Source of the DNA: Eledone cirrhosa
Taxonomy: Eukaryota
Assembly: GCA_964016885.1 (NCBI GenBank)
Contig: OZ024755.1
Coordinates: 682,001 to 746,000, forward strand
DNA length: 64,000 bases
Direction: 5' to 3'
Shown here: positions 6,271 through 44,205 of the stretch, piece by piece
How positions within the stretch are numbered: position 1 is the stretch's first letter
How the letters are laid out: each line of letters begins with the position of its first letter
Made by a program: the position numbers and the translations under genes
The notes under the pieces: generated by a model
Seen by the model: the letters and a program-made list of their open reading frames with translations, nothing else
What the model was told of the DNA's origin: nothing
Database searches by the model: none

Positions 6271-6440
6271 TTTTACTACTATCACTACAAATGTCATCAT
6301 CATCATCATCATCAAACCAACCTGCGTACTTCGTTGAGTGCTCCAATCTGCATACTGAGGTGTCGGTAAACAACCAACATATACTCAAAATTTATATTTA
6401 TATATATATATATATAAGTGATTACACAACAGTTAGTTCA

Positions 6441-6486
6441 CCATATCGAGAACAATTGTTTCACCTTAGAGGATCTTCAGCTCGGA
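6441..6486 (-). ncRNA. Minimal type-I hammerhead ribozyme (left-arm copy)
   Basis: Minus strand: ccgag CTGAAGA t-cct-cta-agg-t GAAA C-AATT-G TT ctcgat. Confidence 0.7.
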
Positions 6487-6534
6487 AGGACAACCATACA
6501 AACAAGGTTGTCCTTCCTGTTCCTATAACCATGT

Positions 6535-6584
6535 CCATTCCGAGCTGAGGATCCGCTAAGGTGAAACAATTGTTCTCGGTATGG
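6535..6584 (+). ncRNA. Minimal type-I hammerhead ribozyme
   Basis: Stem I ccattccgag / ctcggtatgg (9 of 10 pairs), core CTGAGGA (6545-6551), short helix II, GAAA (6563-6566), helix III C-AATT-G with palindromic loop, GUU triplet, predicted cut after 6574. Confidence 0.8.
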
Positions 6585-6607
6585 TGAACTAACTGTTGTG
6601 TAACCAC

Positions 6608-6670
<63 letters not shown>

Positions 6671-6769
6671 TAAATTTTGAGTATATGTTGGTTGTTTACC
6701 GACACCTCAGTATGCAGATTGGAGCACTTGACGAAGTACGCAGGTTGGTTTGTTTACTCCGGAGTAATT

Positions 6770-6931
6770 TAAAATAATTAAGTCAAATATGTAAAATTTG
6801 GCTTCGTTTATTACAAATTATAGATATAGTATATCTATAATTATATATATATATATATAATTATAGATATACTATATCTATAATTTGTAATAAACGAAGC
6901 CAAATTTTACATATTTGACTTAATTATTTTA
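6770..6931. repeat. Perfect ~160-bp palindrome centred on (TA)n
   Basis: taaaataattaagtcaaatatgtaaaatttggcttcg... mirrored by ...cgaagccaaattttacatatttgacttaattatttta. Confidence 0.9.
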
Positions 6932-8884: not shown

Positions 8885-8990
8885 TCATGAAAGTTCTTTT
8901 GTCACACATTTTGTGACCTCCTCAAAGACTATCCGTTCTCATCTGTACCTCCTCTTCTTTCTGGTCTTAATCTGTTGCTCTAGCTTGTCT
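8885..8990 (-). mobile_element. Decayed copy of the hammerhead-bearing family seen at 21555-21892
   Basis: aaagttcttttgtcacacattttgtgacctcctcaaagact aligns to aaagttctttcgtcacacattctgtgacctcttcagtgact (21766-21806); core nucleotides are mutated. Confidence 0.6.
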
Positions 8991-10800: not shown

Positions 10801-13800
10801 TCATCATCATCATCATCATCATTTTACGTCCGCTTTTCCCTGCTTGCAAGGGTGGGACGGGTCTTATTCAGCACAGCATCTCTCCACTCATCACGGTCCT
10901 TCGTCATCTCCACCGTGAGCTTCAATGATCTGAGGTCTGTTCTCACCACCTCCGCCCATGTTTTTCATGGTCTACCTCTACCACGTCTTCCTTCAACTGG
11001 CATTTCCTGGCACTTCTTCACCCAGCGGTCATCTTCCATGTGCATCACATGTCCATACCACCTCAGTCTCCTCTCCCGTACACTACATTCTATCCCTCTC
11101 AGACACAGTTTCTCTCTCAACACATTTATGCTGGGTCGTTCACGCACATCCAACGGAGCATGCTTGCCTCATTTCTCTTCAGCCGTCGCATATCCTCTGC
11201 AGTTGCTGCCCATGTCTCACTACCATGCAGCATCGCGCTCCTCACACAGGCATCATACAACCGGCCTTTCGTACGCAGGGAGAAACCCTTCTTCGTCAAC
11301 AGAGGAAACAGCTCCCTAAACTTCTTCCAACCCGTCCTTATTCTAGATACTATGGCCTCGGAACACCCTCCTCCCATGCTAATCTGATCTCCTAGGTACC
11401 GGAAGCTATCCACCACTTCTATAGCGCCCTCCTGCATTTGAAAAATGTGTCTATTAATGCGACTTCTACTGTCTAATTTCCTTGTACATCTACTGCATAC
11501 ATATTTTTCCCTACCTGTTAGTTTGTCTGCTATCCCGCTACATCTCTTGTGTACCCAGGATCTGCATTGTGTGCATTTTATAGAATTTATGCCAGTTCCT
11601 TTTCTGCATATCGAACATGGCCATTTCTCTGACGGAATCAGAGTTTTGTGCTCTTTTCTACTCATCAACACTTTTGTCTCAGCTAGGTTCACTCTCAGTC
11701 CTCTTGCTTCCAAACTGCTGTTTCCATAGCCAGAATTTATTCTCTAGCTCCTCTACTGATTCTGCTATAAGAACCAGATCATCAGCATAGAGAAGTTCTC
11801 ATGGACAGCCAGTCTTAAACTCCTCTGTTATGGCTTGGAGGACTATAATGAACAAGAGCGGGCTGAGGACCGAACCTTGATGTACTCCTACTTGTATCTG
11901 GAATTCCTCACTAAACTCCATTCCTACCCTGACTTTACTGAAAGTACCTCTGTACAAAGTTTGCACTGTCCTCACAAGCCATTCCTCAACACCTAGCTTC
12001 CTTAGGGACCACCAGATGACAGATCGGGGTACCCTATCAAAGGCCTTCTCTAGGTCAACAAAGGCTAAGTATAGTGGCTTATTTTTCTCTAAAAACCTCT
12101 CTTGCAATTGTCTCACCAAGAAGAGGGCATCTGTTGTACTCTTCCCAGGCACAAAACCAAACTGCATCTCATCTAGTTTGACTCTTTCTCTAATTAGTTG
12201 TGCTAATATCCTTTCTGCCACTTTCATAACCTGATCCATCAGTTTTATACCCCTATAATTGCTCCTCTCCAAAGCATCCCCTTTAACTTTGTAGCAATTT
12301 ATGAGAATACTGCTGCACCAGTCTTTGGGTATGACCACCATATATAACCTAATTGATGATGCGTGTAACCAGTTTAGTGCCTACATCCCCTGATGCCTTC
12401 AGCATCTCAGCAACTATTCCCGATGGTCCAGCAGCCTTACCATTTTTCATTTCCCTAATCGCCTCTTGGACCCTATATTCATCAATCTCAATAGCTGGTC
12501 CCTCTGTCGGATCTACTAAGAGTAATTTATCTCTCTCCCATTCGTTCTCCACATTCATCAGTCACTCATAATGACATTTCAGGCCTCCTTTTTCTGATCA
12601 TTCGTGACACTAAGTACACCGGCATCATCCCGGACACATTTATCTCCAACAACATCCTGATTTGCATTAACACACTGCCTTGCAATGTGGAACACCGCAC
12701 GCCTCTGATCTTCCCGTCGCAGAACATTGGCAAACCTCCTACTCTCCGCCTCCCTGCGTGCTAAGTACACCTGACATCTAACTTCTCTCTTAGTGGCTGT
12801 ATATTCTTCCCTACTCCCACCCTTTTTCCAAGCCTTCCATGCGAGTCTTTTGTCTCTAATGGCCTTATCTACTGTGCTGTTCCACCACCAGGTCACTCTC
12901 TGTCTGGTTGGAGCTCTGCTCCAGCCACAGGTTTCATCAGTAGCCTGCAGCAAGTTGTCACGTAAGAAATTCCAGTTATTATCTATGTCATATGTCTCTA
13001 AATCGTCTTCTTTTTCGTCATATACATCTTGAAGGGCTTTCCTAAATTTGTATGTTAGTGAAAGGTCTTTTAGCTTCGAGACCTTTCTTCTCCACACCTT
13101 CCTGTATGTCTCATTCCATCTCTTGCTTACTGAGATATCACTAACGACTAACCTATGCTGTGGGGTACATTCTTCCCTGGGGTATGCCTTGGTATTAGAC
13201 ACTATCTGCCTGTCCCGTTGCCTAACTAGTAAGAAGTCAATCTGGCTTATATGCTCACCAGATTTGTAGGTTATTAGGTGATTGGCAGGTTTCTGGAAGT
13301 TTGTGTTGCAAATAGTCAATGTACCTGCATCACAAAATTCAAGAAGTCTCACTCCTTCTTCATTTCTTGAACCGTAACCGTGCCCACCATGTACCCCAGT
13401 GTAATCATCCTGGAGCTGTCCAACATGACCATTGAAGTCTCCTGCTAGCATAACAATGTCTCCGTCCTCTGTCATTGCGGTTGTTTGTAAAAGTTGCTCG
13501 TAAAAGCAGTCTTTCTCATCTTTGCCTAGGCCTGCTTGGAGAGCATAGACCGAGATGATTGTCAGTAGTCTCCTACCTACAACTAATCTAAGCTTAATTA
13601 TTCGATTACTAACTCGAACTACCTCTATTGTCTTATTGATCCATTTCTCAGCCAGGAAAATGCCTACTCCCTCTAACCCATCATCCTAACCTACCCAGAA
13701 TAGCTTATAGCTAAGACGTTTGCCTACGACTAGTCTCGCAGAGCCACCTCTCCATCTCACCTCTTGCACGCAGCACACATCCACATGCCTTCTCTCCAGC

Positions 13801-14508: not shown

Positions 14509-15332
14509 ATATAATAATAATAATAATGTTTGCTTTACGCTGGTAATGGTGGTGGTGGTGGTGAATGGTGGTGGATGGTTTCAGTACGGTGATGGTGGTG
14601 GTGGTGGATGGTCAGTGATGGTGGCAGTTGTTGTTGCTGTAGTTGTTATTGTAGTTGCTGCCGCTGTTGCTGTTGTTGTTGTTCTTCATTTTACTGATGC
14701 TGCAGACAATGGTGTTGATGCTGTTATTGTAGTCGCATATATATAAATACATACATACACACACATTCAACACAGACAATGGTGTTGTTGCTGTCGCTGT
14801 TGTTGTTGTAATTTTGAGAGGTCTACGTAAGCATTGATATATATATATATGTATGTAAAATGTAAACAGAAATAACAACACATATACTAATGAACATGTT
14901 TTTACATTAAATACAGAGGGACATCTGTAAATGATAATAACAATATTTAGATATAAATGTACATATCTCTATTGGTCTCATAATTTTTTTTTATTTCCTT
15001 GTGTGTAGCAACACGTGGTTGTGTGTTGCTGCTGACTCTAGCAGAGCCCAAGAAAACATGTCTTGCCCTAACACCCGCCGGGTGTATATATATAAATATA
15101 TACATATCTATATACATATATATATATGTATATATACACTCCTAGTTCCACTCCTGTCTTCAGGTATGGGTACTATTTAAATTCTGCTATTTTCTCTCAT
15201 TTATGAAACTGTTATCAAACATCAAGTTTTATTTCATAGCAAAGTTAATAAATTGAAGTTATTTCATGAGGATGCTAGCGTGGAAGATGGACATTAAACC
15301 ATGATGATATATATATATATATATATATATAC

Positions 15333-15465
15333 TTGGGGAGGGTCATATTTGTGTAATAATATTGCCAGAATTAATAACAGAACATACTCACTGTTTGGTT
15401 GGTTTTCACTTCTGTGTCTTTTATATCGGTTAATTTAATTTATTCGGTCCTCAATGTTACCACTT
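15333..15465. mobile_element. Fragment of the fold-back family at 19636-20344
   Basis: ttggggagggtcatatttg...aatattgccagaattaataacagaaca...tgtttggttggttttc...cggtcctcaatgtt shared with 19702-19835; starts in (TA)n. Confidence 0.8.
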
Positions 15466-19047: not shown

Positions 19048-19587
19048 AATATTATACAGTAGTTGTTAACAAAGACTCTAGCTGACACCATTAAGGAAAC
19101 TTCCTCAAAAGAAAGAAAAAAGTCATTTACAGAACAACAACAACAACAGCAACAGAAGAGAACATCTAATGACAATATAGTCTTATTATCTCTCACTCTC
19201 TCCTCCTCTATCCCCCTCTCTCTTCAAGTAGTCTTATTATCTCCCCTTTCTCACCTCTTCCCTATCCTCCTCCCCTCTCTCTCCATCTATATAACACTGT
19301 GTTAATACAAGAGCAGCAAAGATCAATTTGCTGCCAGTCTGCTAGTAGTTCCATATATTCTCTATATGTCAATAAGGATTACCTCCCTTGCCTCTAGCTA
19401 CAATTTCTAATGCATCAAACAACATCTGTGAAACCATTGATTTTTAGCTTGATTTAGCTCGTTTTTTGTGTGTGTGTGTGAGGGGGGGGGGGGTGTTTGT
19501 ATTGTTTTAGATTCTTATTAAACAAAGACTTTTTATTCTGTGTTTTATTTTAGATGGTCTCTCTCTCTCTTTCTCTCTCTGTATACA

Positions 19588-19636
<49 letters not shown>

Positions 19637-19690
19637 CGGCGATGAATTAGTTTTGCGAGGTTTTTTATATGAAATCGTGTGTCGAAACAG

Positions 19691-19980
19691 ATATTGTTAT
19701 ATTTGGGGAGGGTCATATTTGCGTAATATTGCCAGAATTAATAACAGAACACACTCACTGTTTGGTTGGTTTTCGCTTCTCGCTGTCTTTTATATATATA
19801 TATCTGCGATCTAACTTACTCGGTCCTCAATGTTGCCATTGACTGACCGGCGGTCAAAAATAATACAGATACAATATAGACACAAACATATATATAGTTT
19901 ACATAAATCTTTCGTTGCACATCTGCAACATCGTCAGTGGTGTTATATTCATTGTTCCTCCTGTTGTGTTGTATGTCTAC

Positions 19981-20012
<32 letters not shown>

Positions 20013-20344
20013 GTTCAGTCTGTCTCAGACAGACTGAACAAAAAAAAAAATGGCGTAGACATACAACACAACAGGAGGAACAATGAATATAACACCACTG
20101 ACGATGTTGCAGATGTGCAACGAAAGATTTATGTAAACTATATATATGTTTGTGTCTATATTGTATCTGTATTATTTTTGACCGCCGGTCAGTCAATGGC
20201 AACATTGAGGACCGAGTAAGTTAGATCGCAGATATATATATATAAAAGACAGCGAGAAGCGAAAACCAACCAAACAGTGAGTGTGTTCTGTTATTAATTC
20301 TGGCAATATTACGCAAATATGACCCTCCCCAAATATAACAATAT
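19691..20344. mobile_element. ~650-bp near-perfect palindrome (fold-back element) between (TA)n tracts
   Basis: Arms identical except poly-T versus poly-A length; centre gtctgtct-c-agacagac at 20026; mirrored ORFs on both strands in the ORF track. Confidence 0.9.
20096..20133 (+). ncRNA. Hammerhead-like core (mirror copy on the minus strand at ~19901-19938)
   Basis: CTGACGA t-gttgca-gatg-tgcaac GAAA gatt TA; perfect 6-bp helix II, stem I only 2 bp. Confidence 0.55.
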
Positions 20345-20360
20345 ATATATATATATATAT

Positions 20361-20468
20361 GAACCAGTAAGACCCCGACAGCTGAGCTCAAGCCGTTTCG
20401 ACGGCTAATTCTGGACAAAATTAGCCGTCGAAACGGCTTGAGCTCAGCTGTCGGGGTCTTACTGGTTC
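20361..20468. repeat. Perfect 50-bp-arm hairpin containing the 3' half of a hammerhead
   Basis: gaaccagtaagaccccgacagctgagctcaagccgtttcgacggctaatt-ctggacaa-reverse complement; GAAA-cggct-tgagctc-agctg-TC. Confidence 0.85.
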
Positions 20469-20570
20469 CTATTACCCACTCTACTACCTCAAGTATTGAG
20501 TACTTTGGTGCGTTATGGTCCACCTGGTTCCTTACCACATTTCCTTCGTTATATATATATATATATATAT

Positions 20571-21486
20571 TTAATACATTAACAGAGAAATCTTTAAGCA
20601 ATACTCCGACCGGCTTCCGTCTCACTCAACAAACATTAGGATATACCTTAGTATAATCCCAATTATACGTTTGGGGTGCTAACTATACGTATTTTGCGGA
20701 TAGCCAGTTGTATTATTTTATATGAAACATAATTAAAATACATCTCTCTTTCCAAACGATCGTTTCATTATAAGTTTTCTACAAATTGGGAAAATAATGT
20801 CCAGGTTGTGTAGAAGCCTACACTTAGTCCGTAGGAATATATGTAGGTGGGTACTTATAAATCATCAGTTGATGCCCGACAAATATCGATATAAAAAAAA
20901 AAAAAAAAACCTTACCGATATTAATGTTCAGCGATGGTACCCCTCCGTGCCAGAATGACCGCCAAATTTGAAATTCCAGCAGTCTCACAATGAGAAATCT
21001 CACACTGCCATCAAGCGGAAAGGGGAGGTCATTGCAAAACATAAAATAATAAAACAATATGCACGCGGGTCAATTAATTCTTTCAATAATTTTAACCATG
21101 CGTGAAGAACTCAATTGGATATAAACAAATAAATATATGCATGTATTATTTATACACGCATATAGGTATTTTCTTAGGCTAAAAACAGAGATAAGATACC
21201 GGAAGAACAATCAAGATTTCATACAAAGAATAAATACGGAAAGTCATACCTAAAAAGTATCTGGAAATATTCATCCCTGGCCAAATCAAGAGTATAATAT
21301 TTAATACATTAACAGACAAAGCTTTAAGCAATACTCCGACAGACTTCCATCTCACTCAACAAACATTAGGATATACCTTAGTATAATCCCAATTATACGT
21401 TTGGGGTGCTAACTATACGTATTTTGCGGATAGCCAGTTGTATTATTTTATATGAGACATAATTAAAATACATCTCTCTTTCCAAA

Positions 21487-21490
<4 letters not shown>
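20571..21490 (-). mobile_element. 730-bp unit with 190-bp direct terminal repeat and one hammerhead motif (pseudo-LTR / retrozyme-like)
   Basis: 20571-20760 repeated at 21301-21490 (about 6 substitutions); (TA)n on both outer sides. Confidence 0.7.
20751..20872 (-). ncRNA. Type-I hammerhead motif with large helix-II insertion
   Basis: Minus strand: tcaa CTGATGA t-ttataagt-[77 nt]-acttataa-t GAAA C-GATC-G TT tgga; 8-bp helix II, palindromic helix III, stem I 3 of 4 pairs. Confidence 0.6.
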
Positions 21491-21554
<64 letters not shown>

Positions 21555-21892
21555 CGTTTCTGAATTTGTTTAGCAAGATTCTTTATCTTAAAACGTGTGT
21601 TGAAACCGATATTGTTATACTTTGGGAGGGTCATGTTGCCAATAAGAAACACACGCACCAGTTGCTTTCACTTCAATTTATTATAATAAATTTATAGATT
21701 TAGGAATTTATAAATTTCCGGTTGGTTGGTTGATTCCACAACCAGATGGTTGTTTATATATTGTCAAAGTTCTTTCGTCACACATTCTGTGACCTCTTCA
21801 GTGACTGATGATTCTTTTCTTTGTTTTTTTGTGCCTCTCCTTTGTTCTGTCCTACGCCAGCAGATGGCGTAGGACAGAACAAAGGAGAGGCA
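21555..21892. mobile_element. Diverged member of the 19636-20344 family, ending in a 28-bp-arm hairpin
   Basis: Shares gaaac.gatattgttata..tgggagggtcat and ctacgcca; hairpin tgcctctcctttgttctgtcctacgcca-gcaga-tggcgtaggacagaacaaaggagaggca (21832-21892); TA-flanked. Confidence 0.7.
21763..21805 (-). ncRNA. Minimal type-I hammerhead ribozyme motif
   Basis: Minus strand: gtca CTGAAGA g-gtcaca-gaatg-tgtgac GAAA gaac TT tgac; stem I 4 bp, helix II 6 bp. Confidence 0.65.
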
Positions 21893-21912
21893 TATATATA
21901 TATATATATGTG

Positions 21913-22057
21913 AAGGCACATGGCTTAGTGGTTAGAGCATTGGGCTTGCAATCTAAAGGCTGTGAGTTCAATTCTCGGTCGGACCGGGTGATGTGTTGTT
22001 TCCTGAGCAAAACACTTTATTTCACGTTGCTCCAGTTTACTCAGCTGTAGAAATGAG
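21913..22057 (+). mobile_element. tRNA-derived CORE-type SINE (family B)
   Basis: A-box tggcttagtgg, B-box gagttcaattc, CORE-like ctgagcaaaacactttatttcacgttgctccagtttactcagctgtagaaatgag. Confidence 0.8.
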
Positions 22058-22186
22058 ATGAAGAGGCACCTGCCCGCCCAGCCAGTGGGATGGCGTTATC
22101 TTATGGCTCTAATGCTTATACATAAATGCATAAGCATGCATACATACTCACATGTGTGTATGTACACACATGTGTATATATGTTGT

Positions 22187-26019: not shown

Positions 26020-26181
26020 GAACCCCAGTCCCTATCATCTCATTTCTACAGCTGAGTAAACTGGAGCAATGTGAAATAAAGTGTCTTGCTCAAGGAAACA
26101 ACACACCACCCGGTCTGAGAATTGAACTCACAACCTTTCGATTGCAAGGCCAATGCTCTAACCACTAAGCCATGTGCCTCC
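26020..26181 (-). mobile_element. SINE family B
   Basis: Reverse complement of 21913-22057. Confidence 0.85.
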
Positions 26182-26365
26182 ATAATAATAATTGTTTCTA
26201 CTTTTTGGCACAAGGCCAGCAATTACCCAGTGCATTACTGGTACTTTATTCTATCGACCCCGTATGGATGAAAGGCAAAGTTAACCTCAGCAGGGTTTGA
26301 ACTCAGAACGTAAAGGGTGATAACTTTATGCTGCAAACCATGGTCTCTGAGCCTCTCCTGATACT
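26182..26365 (-). mobile_element. SINE family A
   Basis: Reverse complement of 6066-6270; directly abuts the family B copy. Confidence 0.85.
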
Positions 26366-29064: not shown

Positions 29065-29950
29065 AGTTCAGAGAACTTATACCACTATTAGCTGCTAAAG
29101 GGTTCTCCCTAAAAATGAAAGGCAGGTTGTACGATGCCTGCATACGAACAGCAATGCTGCATGGCAGTGAGACCTGGGCATTGTGTGCAGAGGATATACG
29201 CAGACTAGAGAGGAACGAAGCTTGCATGCTCCGCTGGATGTGTAACAGTAATATACGTGAACGGCAAAGCATAAACGAACTAAGGAAAAAATTAGAGATA
29301 AGAGGGATCAGATGTTGTTTACTCGAGAGAAGGCTACGTTGGTATGGACACGTGATGAGCATGAAAGTCGATAGCTGTATAACAAAGTGCAGGGCAATAA
29401 AGATAGACGGTAGTCACGGAATAGGCAGACCTAGAAAAACCTGGGACGAGCTGATAAACTCCGACATCACACACTTACACCTCTCCAAGACAATGTCACT
29501 GGACCGAGACCTTTGGCGGTACTCAGTAACAGAGAAGACCCGCCTTACCTAAATATATAGTAAAACCTACTCCAGCCAGTAGGCATCTCTAACAAAATAC
29601 ACCCCGTCCCACCACCACCACCCCCACCCCATCCACACCACCCCGTTCTATGTAAAGTTATGTTGGTGCCGCGCCATCCAGGCCGAAACAAATGAGATCG
29701 TGTAGGTGTCACGACAAAGAAACACAGAGTCCACGCTGTAATGTGGCCGTGTAGGCAACACGGTAAAAACCTCCCAGACCCACACTGTAAATGTGGTTGG
29801 TGTTAGGAAGGGCATCCAACTGTAGAAAACCTGCCAGACAGTCCTATGCGAGCAAGACAATCACTCTTGCCTCAAGTGGGACTACCCCTGTCCAAACCCA
29901 TGCAAGCGTGGAACACGGACGTTAAACGTTGATGATGATGATGATGATGA
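29065..29950 (+). mobile_element. RTE family B 3' fragment (ORF end, 3'UTR, (GAT)n tail)
   Basis: KGRLYDACIRTAMLHGSETW...RRLRWYGHV...GRPRKTW; tail ggacgttaaacgttgatgatg. Confidence 0.92.
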
Positions 29951-32597: not shown

Positions 32598-33011
32598 AAA
32601 GAGCTAGCTATTATATATTGTATATATAGTATATATTATATATATATATATATATTGTATATATTGTGTTTAGTGTCTATTATATATATATTGTCCACAC
32701 CTAACTTTAAATTTCATATCTTTTCACAATCACTATTAAGGGTCTGGCTAATGTATAATTATTTGCATATGTGTATACAAATATATATATATATATGTGT
32801 GTGTGTGTGTTTGTGTGTATATATATATATATACACACGCACACACATATATGTGTGTGCGTGTGTATATATATATATACACACACTCACACACACATAC
32901 ATATGTATGTGTGATTTATTTTGTATAGAAATTACTCCTGCCGGACTAGAACTATTTAATTTATTTGAAATCACCAGGAAAGTATTTGCTAACAGGCTGC
33001 TTTCTATATAT

Positions 33012-36000
33012 GCTAAAAATGTTGTTAACAGGGTGTGTTATGCCTGTTAAAAATATTGTTAACAGGGTGTGTTATGCATGTTAAAAATATTGTTAACAGG
33101 GTGTGTTATGCATGTTAAAAATGTTGTTAACAGGGTGTGTTATGCCTGTTAAAAATATTGTTAACAGGGTGTGTTATGCATGTTAAAAATATTGTTAACA
33201 GGGTGTGTTATGCATGTTAAAAATGTTGTTAACAGGGTGTGTTATGCCTGTTAAAAATATTGTTAACAGGGTGTGTTATGCATGTTAAAAATGTTGTTAA
33301 CAGGGTGTGTTATGCCTGTTAAAAATGTTGTTAACAGGGTGTGTTATGCCTGTTAAAAATATTGTTAACAGGGTGTGTTATGCATGTTAAAAATGTTGTT
33401 AACAGGGTGTGTTATGCATGTTAAAAATGTTGTTAACAGGGTGTGTTATGCCTGTTAAAAATATTGTTAACAGGGTGTGTTATGCATGTTAAAAATATTG
33501 TTAACAGGGTGTGTTATGCATGTTAAAAATGTTGTTAACAGGGTGTGTTATGCCTGTTAAAAATGTTGTTAACAGGGTGTGTTATGCATGTTAAAAATAT
33601 TGTTAACAGGGTGTGTTATGCATGTTAAAAATGTTGTTAACAGGGTGTGTTATGCATGTTAAAAATGTTGTTAACAGGGTGTGTTATGCCTGTTAAAAAT
33701 ATTGTTAACAGGGTGTGTTATGCATGTTAAAAATGTTGTTAACAGGGTGTGTTATGCCTGTTAAAAATGTTGTTAACAGGGTGTGTTATGCATGTTAAAA
33801 ATGTTGTTAACAGGGTGTGTTATGCCTGTTAAAAATGTTGTTAACAGGGTGTGTTATGCATGTTAAAAATGTTGTTAACAGGGTGTGTTATGCCTGTTAA
33901 AAATATTGTTAACAGGGTGTGTTATGCATGTTAAAAATGTTGTTAACAGGGTGTGTTATGCCTGTTAAAAATGTTGTTAACAGGGTGTGTTATGCATGTT
34001 AAAAATGTTGTTAACAGGGTGTGTTATGCCTGTTAAAAATGTTGTTAACAGGGTGTGTTATGCATGTTAAAAATGTTGTTAACAGGGTGTGTTATGCCTG
34101 TTAAAAATATTGTTAACAGGGTGTGTTATGCATGTTAAAAATGTTGTTAACAGGGTGTGTTATGCCTGTTAAAAATGTTGTTAACAGGGTGTGTTATGCA
34201 TGTTAAAAATGTTGTTAACAGGGTGTGTTATGCATGTTAAAAATGTTGTTAACAGGGTGTGTTATGCCTGTTAAAAATGTTGTTAACAGGGTGTGTTATG
34301 CATGTTAAAAATGTTGTTAACAGGGTGTGTTATGCCTGTTAAAAATGTTGTTAACAGGGTGTGTTATGCATGTTAAAAATGTTGTTAACAGGGTGTGTTA
34401 TGCCTGTTAAAAATATTGTTAACAGGGTGTGTTATGCATGTTAAAAATGTTGTTAACAGGGTGTGTTATGCCTGTTAAAAATGTTGTTAACAGGGTGTGT
34501 TATGCATGTTAAAAATGTTGTTAACAGGGTGTGTTATGCATGTTAAAAATGTTGTTAACAGGGTGTGTTATGCCTGTTAAAAATATTGTTAACAGGGTGT
34601 GTTATGCATGTTAAAAATGTTGTTAACAGGGTGTGTTATGCCTGTTAAAAATGTTGTTAACAGGGTGTGTTATGCATGTTAAAAATGTTGTTAACAGGGT
34701 GTGTTATGCATGTTAAAAATGTTGTTAACAGGGTGTGTTATGCCTGTTAAAAATATTGTTAACAGGGTGTGTTATGCATGTTAAAAATGTTGTTAACAGG
34801 GTGTGTTATGCCTGTTAAAAATGTTGTTAACAGGGTGTGTTATGCATGTTAAAAATGTTGTTAACAGGGTGTGTTATGCATGTTAAAAATGTTGTTAACA
34901 GGGTGTGTTATGCATGTTAAAAATGTTGTTAACAGGGTGTGTTATGCCTGTTAAAAATATTGTTAACAGGGTGTGTTATGCCTGTTAAAAATGTTGTTAA
35001 CAGGGTGTGTTATGCATGTTAAAAATGTTGTTAACAGGGTGTGTTATGCATGTTAAAAATGTTGTTAACAGGGTGTGTTATGCATGTTAAAAATGTTGTT
35101 AACAGGGTGTGTTATGCCTGTTAAAAATGTTGTTAACAGGGTGTGTTATGCATGTTAAAAATGTTGTTAACAGGGTGTGTTATGCCTGTTAAAAATGTTG
35201 TTAACAGGGTGTGTTATGCCTGTTAAAAATGTTGTTAACAGGGTGTGTTATGCCTGTTAAAAATATTGTTAACAGGGTGTGTTATGCATGTTAAAAATAT
35301 TGTTAACAGGGTGTGTTATGCCTGTTAAAAATATTGTTAACAGGGTGTGTTATGCATGTTAAAAATATTGTTAACAGGGTGTGTTATGCCTGTTAAAAAT
35401 ATTGTTAACAGGGTGTGTTATGCCTGTTAAAAATATTGTTAACAGGGTGTGTTATGCCTGTTAAAAATATTGTTAACAGGGTGTGTTATGCATGTTAAAA
35501 ATATTGTTAACAGGGTGTGTTATGCCTGTTAAAAATATTGTTAACAGGGTGTGTTATGCATGTTAAAAATATTGTTAACAGGGTGTGTTATGCCTGTTAA
35601 AAATATTGTTAACAGGGTGTGTTATGCCTGTTAAAAATATTGTTAACAGGGTGTGTTATGCATGTTAAAAATATTGTTAACAGGGTGTGTTATGCCTGTT
35701 AAAAATATTGTTAACAGGGTGTGTTATGCATGTTAAAAATATTGTTAACAGGGTGTGTTATGCCTGTTAAAAATATTGTTAACAGGGTGTGTTATGCATG
35801 TTAAAAATATTGTTAACAGGGTGTGTTATGCCTGTTAAAAATATTGTTAACAGGGTGTGTTATGCCTGTTAAAAATATTGTTAACAGGGTGTGTTATGCA
35901 TGTTAAAAATATTGTTAACAGGGTGTGTTATGCCTGTTAAAAATATTGTTAACAGGGTGTGTTATGCATGTTAAAAATATTGTTAACAGGGTGTGTTATG

Positions 36001-36152
36001 CCTGTTAAAAATATTGTTAACAGGGTGTGTTATGCATGTTAAAAATATTGTTAACAGGGTGTGTTATGCCTGTTAAAAATATTGTTAACAGGGTGTGTTA
36101 TGCCTGTTAAAAATATTGTTAACAGGGTGTGTTATGCCTGTTAAAAATATTG
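33012..36152. repeat. 34-bp tandem satellite, about 92 copies
   Basis: tgttaaaaat(a/g)ttgttaacagggtgtgttatgc(a/c); period 34 (aacaggg at 33061 and 33095). Confidence 0.97.
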
Positions 36153-36490
36153 CTAGAAAGTCGGGAGGGGTTGTATGTTAAAAATATTGCTAAGAGGATG
36201 GGTTATATATGTTAAAAGTGTTGCTAAGAGGATGGGTTATATATGTTAAAAGTGTTGCTAAGAGGATGGGTTATATATGTTAAAAATATTGCTAAGAGGA
36301 TGGGTTATATCTGTTAAAAGTGTTGCTAACATGATGCGTCTTTTTTTTTTTTGTAAGAAATATTGCTAACAGGGTGGTTTGTAGATGTTAAAAACATTAT
36401 GAACAGGGGGGTTTTTATGTGTAAAAATATTGCTAACAAGATGGTTTTTATATAATTCATGTATTGACTGTTGCTAACAGGGTAGTTTGT
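36153..36490. repeat. Degenerate relatives of the 34-bp unit
   Basis: gttaaaagtgttgctaagaggatgggttatatat and more diverged ttgctaacaggg units. Confidence 0.8.
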
Positions 36491-43394: not shown

Positions 43395-44205
43395 AGTCCT
43401 ACAATTTATGACATAGCTTTACAATTGACAACACAGTCCTACAATTTAAGACATAGCTTTACAATTTAAGACACAGTCCTACAATTTAAGACATAGCTTT
43501 ACAATTTAAGACACAGTCCTACAATTTAAGACACAGTCCTACAATTTAAGACATAGCTTTACAATTTAAGACACAGTCCTACAATTTAAGACACAGTCCT
43601 ACAATTTAAGACATAGCTTTACAATTTAAGACACAGTCCTACAATTTAAGACATAGCTTTACAATTTAAGACACAGTCCTACAATTTAAGACACAGTCCT
43701 ACAATTTAAGACATAGCTTTACAATTTAAGACACAGTCCTACAATTTAAGACACAGTCCTACAATTTAAGACATAGCTTTACAATTTAAGACACAGTCCT
43801 ACAATTTAAGACACAGTCCTACAATTTAAGACATAGCTTTACAATTTAAGACACAGTCCTACAATTTAAGACACAGTCCTACAATTTAAGACATAGCTTT
43901 ACAATTTAAGACACAGTCCTACAATTTAAGACACAGTCCTACAATTTAAGACATAGCTTTACAATTTAAGACACAGTCCTACAATTTAAGACACAGTCCT
44001 ACAATTTAAGACATAGCTTTACAATTTAAGACACAGTCCTACAATTTAAGACACAGTCCTACAATTTAAGACATAGCTTTACAATTTAAGACACAGTCCT
44101 ACAATTTAAGACATAGCTTTACAATTTAAGACACAGTCCTACAATTTAAGACACAGTCCTACAATTTAAGACATAGCTTTACAATTTAAGACAGTCCTAC
44201 AATTT
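43395..44205. repeat. 20-bp satellite with two variants in a higher-order pattern, about 40 units
   Basis: A=acaatttaagacacagtcct, B=acaatttaagacatagcttt; mostly AAB trimers. Confidence 0.97.

Follow-up and report, generated by a model that had tools for sequence, protein, structure and literature searches.

Four short elements, here called A, B, C and D, alternated with five perfect (TA)n tracts at 19591-21909 of the window, the 64,000-nt stretch of Eledone cirrhosa contig OZ024755.1 that was analysed here (Table 1). We think it highly likely that A-D are 5'-truncated pLTR ends of endonuclease-bearing Penelope-like elements (PLEs), which were probably inserted serially into one long TA microsatellite. 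The cluster is real and non-random, and its likeliest nature is ordinary debris of PLE ends, contributed by three lineages. Reverse transcriptase (RT) and endonuclease (EN) were not recovered, so we infer PLE membership from anatomy, and in truncated copies the missing RT and EN are expected.

The preliminary description of this DNA counted four distinct TA-delimited elements, each non-coding and each with a palindrome or terminal repeat, and took them for a diverse, non-autonomous, Penelope-dependent set. The tracts, motifs and repeats were confirmed and an RT or endonuclease ORF was indeed absent, but A and D belong to one lineage and carry a 27-codon ORF start, and only A, B and D are fold-back elements, C being a direct partial tandem. 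The dependence on PLEs was upheld on anatomical grounds. Non-autonomy was not, because A and D resemble ends left by truncation of a coding element and not stand-alone non-autonomous elements, which leaves C as the only fair candidate of that kind.

Table 1 Coordinates of the TA tracts, elements and motifs of the chain (positions in the window)
Feature	Position	Strand	Detail
(TA)n tract, left border of chain	19591..19635	.	45 nt
Element A, head-to-head inverted pair of pLTR-like ends	19636..20344	.	near-perfect 709-nt palindrome about 20026
One-sided extension (tail) of A, left arm only	19636..19690	-	55 nt; codons 9-27 of ORF start
27-codon ORF start in A (within P0001), putative	19636..19716	-	truncated at TA tract
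TA tract within A arm	19791..19803	.	13 nt; mirror 20232-20244; shorter in relative at 15332
A minimal type I hammerhead, left arm	19902..19939	-	stem I just 2 bp in this copy
A minimal type I hammerhead, right arm	20096..20133	+	core 20098-20104, 6-bp stem II, GAAA 20122-20125
(TA)n tract, A/B boundary	20341..20360	.	20 nt
Element B, 3' half hammerhead with inverted arm folded around stem II	20362..20549	+	~80 nt extra on right arm
(TA)n tract, B/C boundary	20550..20570	.	21 nt
Element C, 730-nt unit in 1.26 copies	20571..21490	-	direct repeats 20571-20760 / 21301-21490
C hammerhead	20751..20872	-	core 20868-20862, 8-bp stem II, palindromic stem III
(TA)n tract, C/D boundary	21489..21552	.	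64 nt
Element D, diverged A relative, pLTR-like end with full tail	21553..21892	-	28-bp inverted arm at 5' end
27-codon ORF start in D (within P0002), putative	21554..21634	-	21/27 residues identical to A
D minimal type I hammerhead	21763..21805	-	stem I 4 bp, stem II 6 bp
(TA)n tract, right border	21892..21909	.	18 nt; tRNA-like repeat starts immediately after

TA tracts and hammerhead motifs at the locus

The chain is non-nested, with four elements in a row joined by microsatellite at one locus. Fifty TA-delimited islands of 80-1200 nt were found in the window, and five of these contained a hammerhead core or a 20-nt inverted repeat. Four of the five made up the A-D cluster, and the chance of four out of five being consecutive was ~0.001 (a post hoc value from one window). 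Of random bases in the window, 0.84% lay no more than 3 nt from the edge of a TA array. Since TA was partly used to set the element boundaries, the independent evidence for (TA)n targeting, which had been proposed from the sequence earlier, comes from the fixed junction of B and the common end of A and D, and both bear the proposal out. Among the rows listed, a fixed point behind 20472 where B joins TA recurred in 81 X1 contigs and 3 X5 contigs, which is the same end as on the left arm of B, while both A and D meet TA at an identical codon. Among the listed reads and contigs, none spanned the stretch, so the order of elements in the chain is that of the assembly.

The head of a tRNA-like repeat, presumably a SINE, adjoined the last TA tract (21910-22060, with an Rfam tRNA at 21920-21979), and its best relative at 26036-26182 was without TA flanks. 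Elsewhere in the window, broken endonuclease and RT frames of a LINE, which we take to be RTE-like by its motifs, were found on the minus strand at 11126-13685, with 3' fragments beside large TA arrays near 29067, 30724 and 32201. Tandem arrays of 34 bp (97.6 copies) and 40/60 bp occupied 33010-36331 and 43395-44205, respectively.

Full CUGANGA...GAAA cores with a stem II and a short stem III were found in both arms of A, in C and in D, and B contained the 3' half only. There were four cores in 19636-21892, where 2000 dinucleotide shuffles averaged 0.0105 and none reached three, and seven in the whole window, where 100 shuffles averaged 0.41 and had at most 4; these comparisons are optimistic because the core descriptor was widened after sight of the long stem II of C, and the two A cores are one motif duplicated. 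When a stem I of 3-4 bp was required, only D passed within the stretch (1 vs 0.002-0.007 by chance). According to the reads, the weak stems I of A and C at this locus are copy-specific damage. Rfam returned no hammerhead at the gathering score in the window and none up to E 10 in 19500-22000, where its many miRNA matches were all sub-threshold hairpin matches. A weak core at 2954 was regarded as chance. At 8890-8930 there was a D-like hammerhead in decay, its two core boxes mutated and its stem II retained.

Four sequencing runs were mapped on 20037-21488, comprising the right arm of A together with B and C (D lay outside). This region was covered by 20,565 contigs of X1 and by 410,900 of 12,467,656 X21 records, a depth that is not a copy number, and it was also matched by 95 and 54 contigs in two other organisms. 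A, B and C appear to be very high-copy families. Pile-ups of read ends were discounted as biology, five of the seven listed sitting at AATT, likely library restriction sites.

Anatomy of the elements

A and D. The arms of A (19691-19998 and 20037-20344) were complementary at 307 of 308 nt, and the palindrome was asymmetric at its T/A run, with 28 T on one side and 11 A on the other. The arms of D (21832-21859 and 21865-21892) formed a hairpin complementary at all 28 positions. A and D were alignable end to end, with a score of 81.5 for the 5' part versus a maximum of 58 in 500 shuffles, and their 6-bp stems II differed by two compensatory pair changes. A-D thus comprise three repeat lineages, as A and D form one. 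Among the rows listed, which for loose ends were 24 of 1090, 93,963 reads clipped behind 20127 supplied A with a D-like stem III and the 3' strand of stem I, and upstream of the A centre 48,371 reads and one X5 contig ran on into AT-rich, non-palindromic sequence, which indicates that this copy of A is 5'-truncated. The two arms of A agreed in read-minority letters (among the variants listed, e.g. 20146, 20185 and 20216). This is expected if one arm templated the other, and a subfamily or gene conversion would fit equally.

ORF start. Of the 17 base differences between A and D in the 27 codons, 11 fell at third positions (binomial P 0.008), the 21/27 residue identity was reached in 6 of 20,000 randomisations, and eight codon differences were synonymous versus six non-synonymous. 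The 27-codon start, located downstream of the hammerhead, therefore looks to be under purifying selection in A and D. Ends against TA fell at codon 27 in the left arm of A and in D, at codon 8 in the right arm of A, and at codon 5 in the relative at 15332. This relative, a third A-family end at 15332-15462, was 84% alike and also abutted a TA tract. A pLTR that ends within the first ORF codons is a PLE trait seen in both A and D. The searches tied none of the elements to an RT or endonuclease, so the 27 codons are a putative PLE ORF opening.

A profile search with the A/D peptide gave 19 matches, eight of which were short unnamed predicted proteins with a likeness that faded near residue 27. 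These are probably scattered ends, with no full ORF among them. The other 11, all multi-stretch matches, were set aside as long unrelated repeat proteins, and a metagenome match (L001) was ascribed to chance, as it consisted of 16 residues inside a longer unrelated reading frame. Searches of representative proteins returned just short fragments and unrelated repeat proteins, no full-length partner was found among the longer proteins searched, and the peptide had no match in viral contigs and no usable match in the Atlas. No ORF start was found for C and none was demonstrated for B. An RT or GIY-YIG endonuclease ORF was absent from all four copies by the ORF list and Pfam, and three homologue searches of longer proteins recovered no linked RT or endonuclease partner.

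B. The arms of B (20362-20410 and 20419-20467) were complementary at 49 of 49 positions. Its half hammerhead consisted of a stem II hairpin (20400-20429), GAAA (20430-20433), a 6-bp stem III and GUC (20450-20452), and the 5' half was never seen in the copy, reads or contigs examined. Among the 40 of 442 variants listed, a G.U pair of this copy read as G-C in 683/781 and 436/457 reads, and a variant at 20383 (736/781 and 426/458 reads) abolished the outermost pair of stem III. Recurrent fold-back, as the preliminary description had supposed, was found in the joint rows: eight of the 15 listed, out of 94, were B junctions, connecting 20411-20416 to 20466-20516 with a partner of variable length. 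We read these as head-to-head joins in which one partner has its break inside the loop of stem II, and a palindrome-internal deletion would look alike.

C. The direct repeats of C, spaced 730 nt, had six differences in 190 nt that favoured no reading frame, and the reading frames of C were without a Pfam match or homologue. Stem II enclosed a branched insert, giving a core-to-GAAA span of 95 nt. Stem I was broken at 20870 in this copy, and the majority letter, found in 138/145 and 346/347 reads among the variants listed, restored a 4-bp stem. Contig depth in the repeat was mostly several-fold above that in the interior, as a summed depth that is not a copy number, and the interior was tiled by overlapping diverged contig pieces with all 30 bins covered. 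By origin, C may be a non-autonomous derivative with an internal deletion that was propagated as one unit. Ribozyme cleavage was not supported as the origin of its 5' end, since the repeat begins at the centre of the stem III palindrome, 4-6 nt upstream of where the cut is predicted. Two overlapping A-rich open stretches within C (21125-21386, plus strand), antisense to the hammerhead, were without Pfam, homologue or Atlas support. To our eye, and as an assumption of ours, they are reminiscent of a PLE N-terminus.

Other palindromes in the window. A fifth such element at 6417-6610 was a head-to-head pair of minimal hammerheads between TA tracts, with arms differing at 4/71. It sat in a nest at 6315-6750, between the inverted arms of another element (6317-6398 and 6667-6748, two differences in 82). 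An AT-rich palindrome centred on a TA tract was located at 6816-6920, and a hammerhead core was not detected in it.

Origin of the chain

Several PLE traits came together in A-D. Minimal type I hammerheads were predicted from sequence in the terminal repeats, a tail was found on one end (55 nt in A and ~80 nt in B, versus the 30-40 nt described), and the partial second copy was inverted and 5'-truncated in A, B and D and a direct partial tandem in C. The flanks are pure (TA)n, in which a target-site duplication would look no different from the tract itself. We propose that an RT/GIY-YIG protein made elsewhere would nick (TA)n, and that reverse transcription would begin from either of two priming sites within the ORF start, producing a long end (codon 27) or a short end (codons 5-8) whose difference would be the tail. 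Copying would halt early, near or inside the hammerhead, and the new strand would fold back on a local hairpin and copy itself into the head-to-head arm of A, B and D, while copying across a tandem template would give the direct partial tandem of C. Joining to TA would occur via AT microhomology, and with every insertion the TA tract would be divided, exposing new targets on which a chain could build up. The hammerhead need not act for insertion under this scheme, given that the 5' end of C lies upstream of the predicted cut and that insertion in vitro did not require cleavage (PMC11167929). A series of insertions into a single long tract would be enough, with TA extension unneeded, since the window contains TA arrays of 195-596 nt, none belonging to the A-D cluster, against a summed length of 168 nt for the five tracts of the chain.

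A stronger version is tentative, and we lean against it. Here several PLE lineages would build SaTar-like, non-nested TA chains in which insertions and TA seeds in the pLTR make landing sites, and C would be a self-standing 730-nt non-autonomous family with a conserved hammerhead and a structured stem II insert of ~80 nt. The 13-nt internal TA tracts of A, against the short seed in the copy at 15332, are one hint of TA seeding.

It is rather improbable that A-D are all retrozyme-like, self-standing and non-autonomous parasites of PLEs whose transcription and mobilisation take place as short palindromic units. Such derivatives are known (PMC8557442; bioRxiv 10.64898/2026.07.22.740005), RT and EN were missing nearby, the searches found no full-length ORF, and the diverged contig tiling over all 30 bins means that C at least recurs as a multi-copy sequence. 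Opposing this, A continues upstream in 48,371 reads and B junctions differ between copies (each among the rows listed), conservation in A and D is of a coding type, and no element is a tandem of at least two hammerhead-bearing units.

We give very little credence to palindromes having formed after insertion, by repair or slippage at TA cruciforms, or in assembly, instead of by retrotransposition. The 307/308 identity of the A arms would fit such an origin, as would the TA-centred palindrome without a detected hammerhead at ~6816-6920 and the lack of any listed piece that spans the stretch. Yet B-type inverted junctions with differing partner lengths recurred in other contigs and reads (among the rows listed), the 4/71 differences between the arms at 6417-6608 mark that palindrome as old genomic sequence, and only one arm carries a tail, in line with published descriptions of PLEs. 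Similarly far-fetched is the reading of A-D as TA-targeting MITEs or fold-back DNA transposons like plant SaTar/TAFTA, with the hammerheads as passengers: long inverted arms, TA flanks and non-nested chaining do recall SaTar arrays (PMC5907723), but the arms are unequal and abut centrally, head to head, without a spacer, the C repeats are direct, PLE-type minimal hammerheads occur independently in three lineages, the ORF start is located at the outer end, and variable centres and two alternative 3' ends were partly seen for B among the rows listed.

The stumps matter mostly for annotation, since they mimic MITEs or microRNA hairpins but are likely PLE ends. They are also abundant, with 3.3% of records in one reduced-representation run falling on 1.45 kb. 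Should chains recur genome-wide, one could measure with them whether TA microsatellites are lengthened or seeded by PLE insertion in an animal genome rich in microsatellites. The predicted long-stem-II hammerhead of C may be a natural variant of interest.

Comparison with known systems

The preliminary description could not place the TA-targeted palindromic architecture as described, but it was already in PMC3846280, PMC4209133 and PMC8557442, and since head-to-head inversion of copies, palindromic junctions, hammerhead pairs on opposite strands and a preference for (TA)n have each been published, the architecture is known. A-D resemble EN+ PLEs in having a pLTR with a hammerhead and the first ORF codons, an optional tail on one arm, a head-to-head 5'-truncated copy with a junction palindrome, a partial direct tandem, and AT-rich or (TA)n targets (PMC3846280, PMC8557442, PMC11167929). 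The pLTR of Pen2a_Av holds 12 codons, or 22 with the tail, and junction palindromes were interpreted as self-priming, with the head-to-head arrangement commonest (PMC3846280). The tail corresponds in vitro to the gap between two RT start sites (PMC11167929). Inverted 5'-truncated PLE copies have a 30-40-nt tail, and in Penelope-13_HM, where a 5' copy is inverted, both strands carry HHRs (PMC8557442). Unlike the EN+ PLEs described in these papers, A-D are without an RT/EN remnant, have extensions of 55 to ~80 nt, and place three lineages in one TA tract.

Hydra and Naiad PLEs prefer (TA)n, and one Hydra family is from octopus (PMC8557442). The Hydra clade is like this stretch in its (TA)n target and a hammerhead near the 3' end (PMC8557442), a combination that also occurs in other PLE clades and is thus not diagnostic. 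The hammerheads of C and 6417-6610, with a U on either side of stem II, a 4-bp palindromic stem III and a stem I of 4-5 bp, matched most File S2 rows of PMC8557442 by eye, whereas the Hydra-1_Obim row was matched by none of the hammerheads in this stretch, again by eye. The stretch also departs from the Hydra clade in the long branched insert in stem II of C and in the G10.1-C11.1 minimal layout of the A/D hammerheads (PMC8557442). Marks of the Hydra clade are RWK/DKT motifs in the RT, a CxCX5C linker and an EN without CCHH, and clade assignment needs RT and EN. In Octopus vulgaris, 31 Penelope-like families were recently active, and the accessible part of that report does not mention ribozymes (PMC13282606).

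The A/D hammerheads are like the minimal type I hammerheads of metazoan PLEs in their extra nucleotide before stem II and G10.1-C11.1 pair, and further in a 6-bp stem II, a 4-bp stem I, a very short stem III and an occurrence as opposite-strand pairs 100-700 bp apart, which were attributed to truncated PLEs (PMC4209133). The 95-nt core-to-GAAA span of C far exceeds the helices II of 6-8 bp described there (PMC4209133). Animal non-LTR retrozymes are like C in being non-coding and PLE-derived with a type I hammerhead, and C is a partial tandem (PMC7229834; bioRxiv 10.64898/2026.07.22.740005). Retrozymes are tandems of ~300-bp monomers with a hammerhead in each, whereas C is a 730-nt unit with one complete hammerhead, and A, B and D are inverted, unlike retrozyme tandems (PMC7229834; bioRxiv 10.64898/2026.07.22.740005). 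Where a retrozyme has at least two tandem units with complete hammerheads, this copy of C has 1.26 units and one complete hammerhead. Expression as small circular RNA is a further mark of non-LTR retrozymes.

In the openly available papers searched, a multi-family PLE chain in one TA tract was not found. The plant MULEs SaTar and TAFTA are like this stretch in that unrelated short elements follow end to end via microsatellite with none interrupting another; SaTar arrays are chained by microsatellite, and TA expansion is described around TAFTA insertions (PMC5907723). SaTar and TAFTA are class II elements, whereas A-D carry hammerheads and PLE-type ends (PMC5907723). In place of the matching TIRs around a spacer and the fixed structure of MITEs and SaTar, A-D have unequal arms, no spacer, variable junctions and, in C, direct repeats. 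The residual interest of the locus lies in its multi-family chain, known for plant SaTar DNA elements, and in element C.
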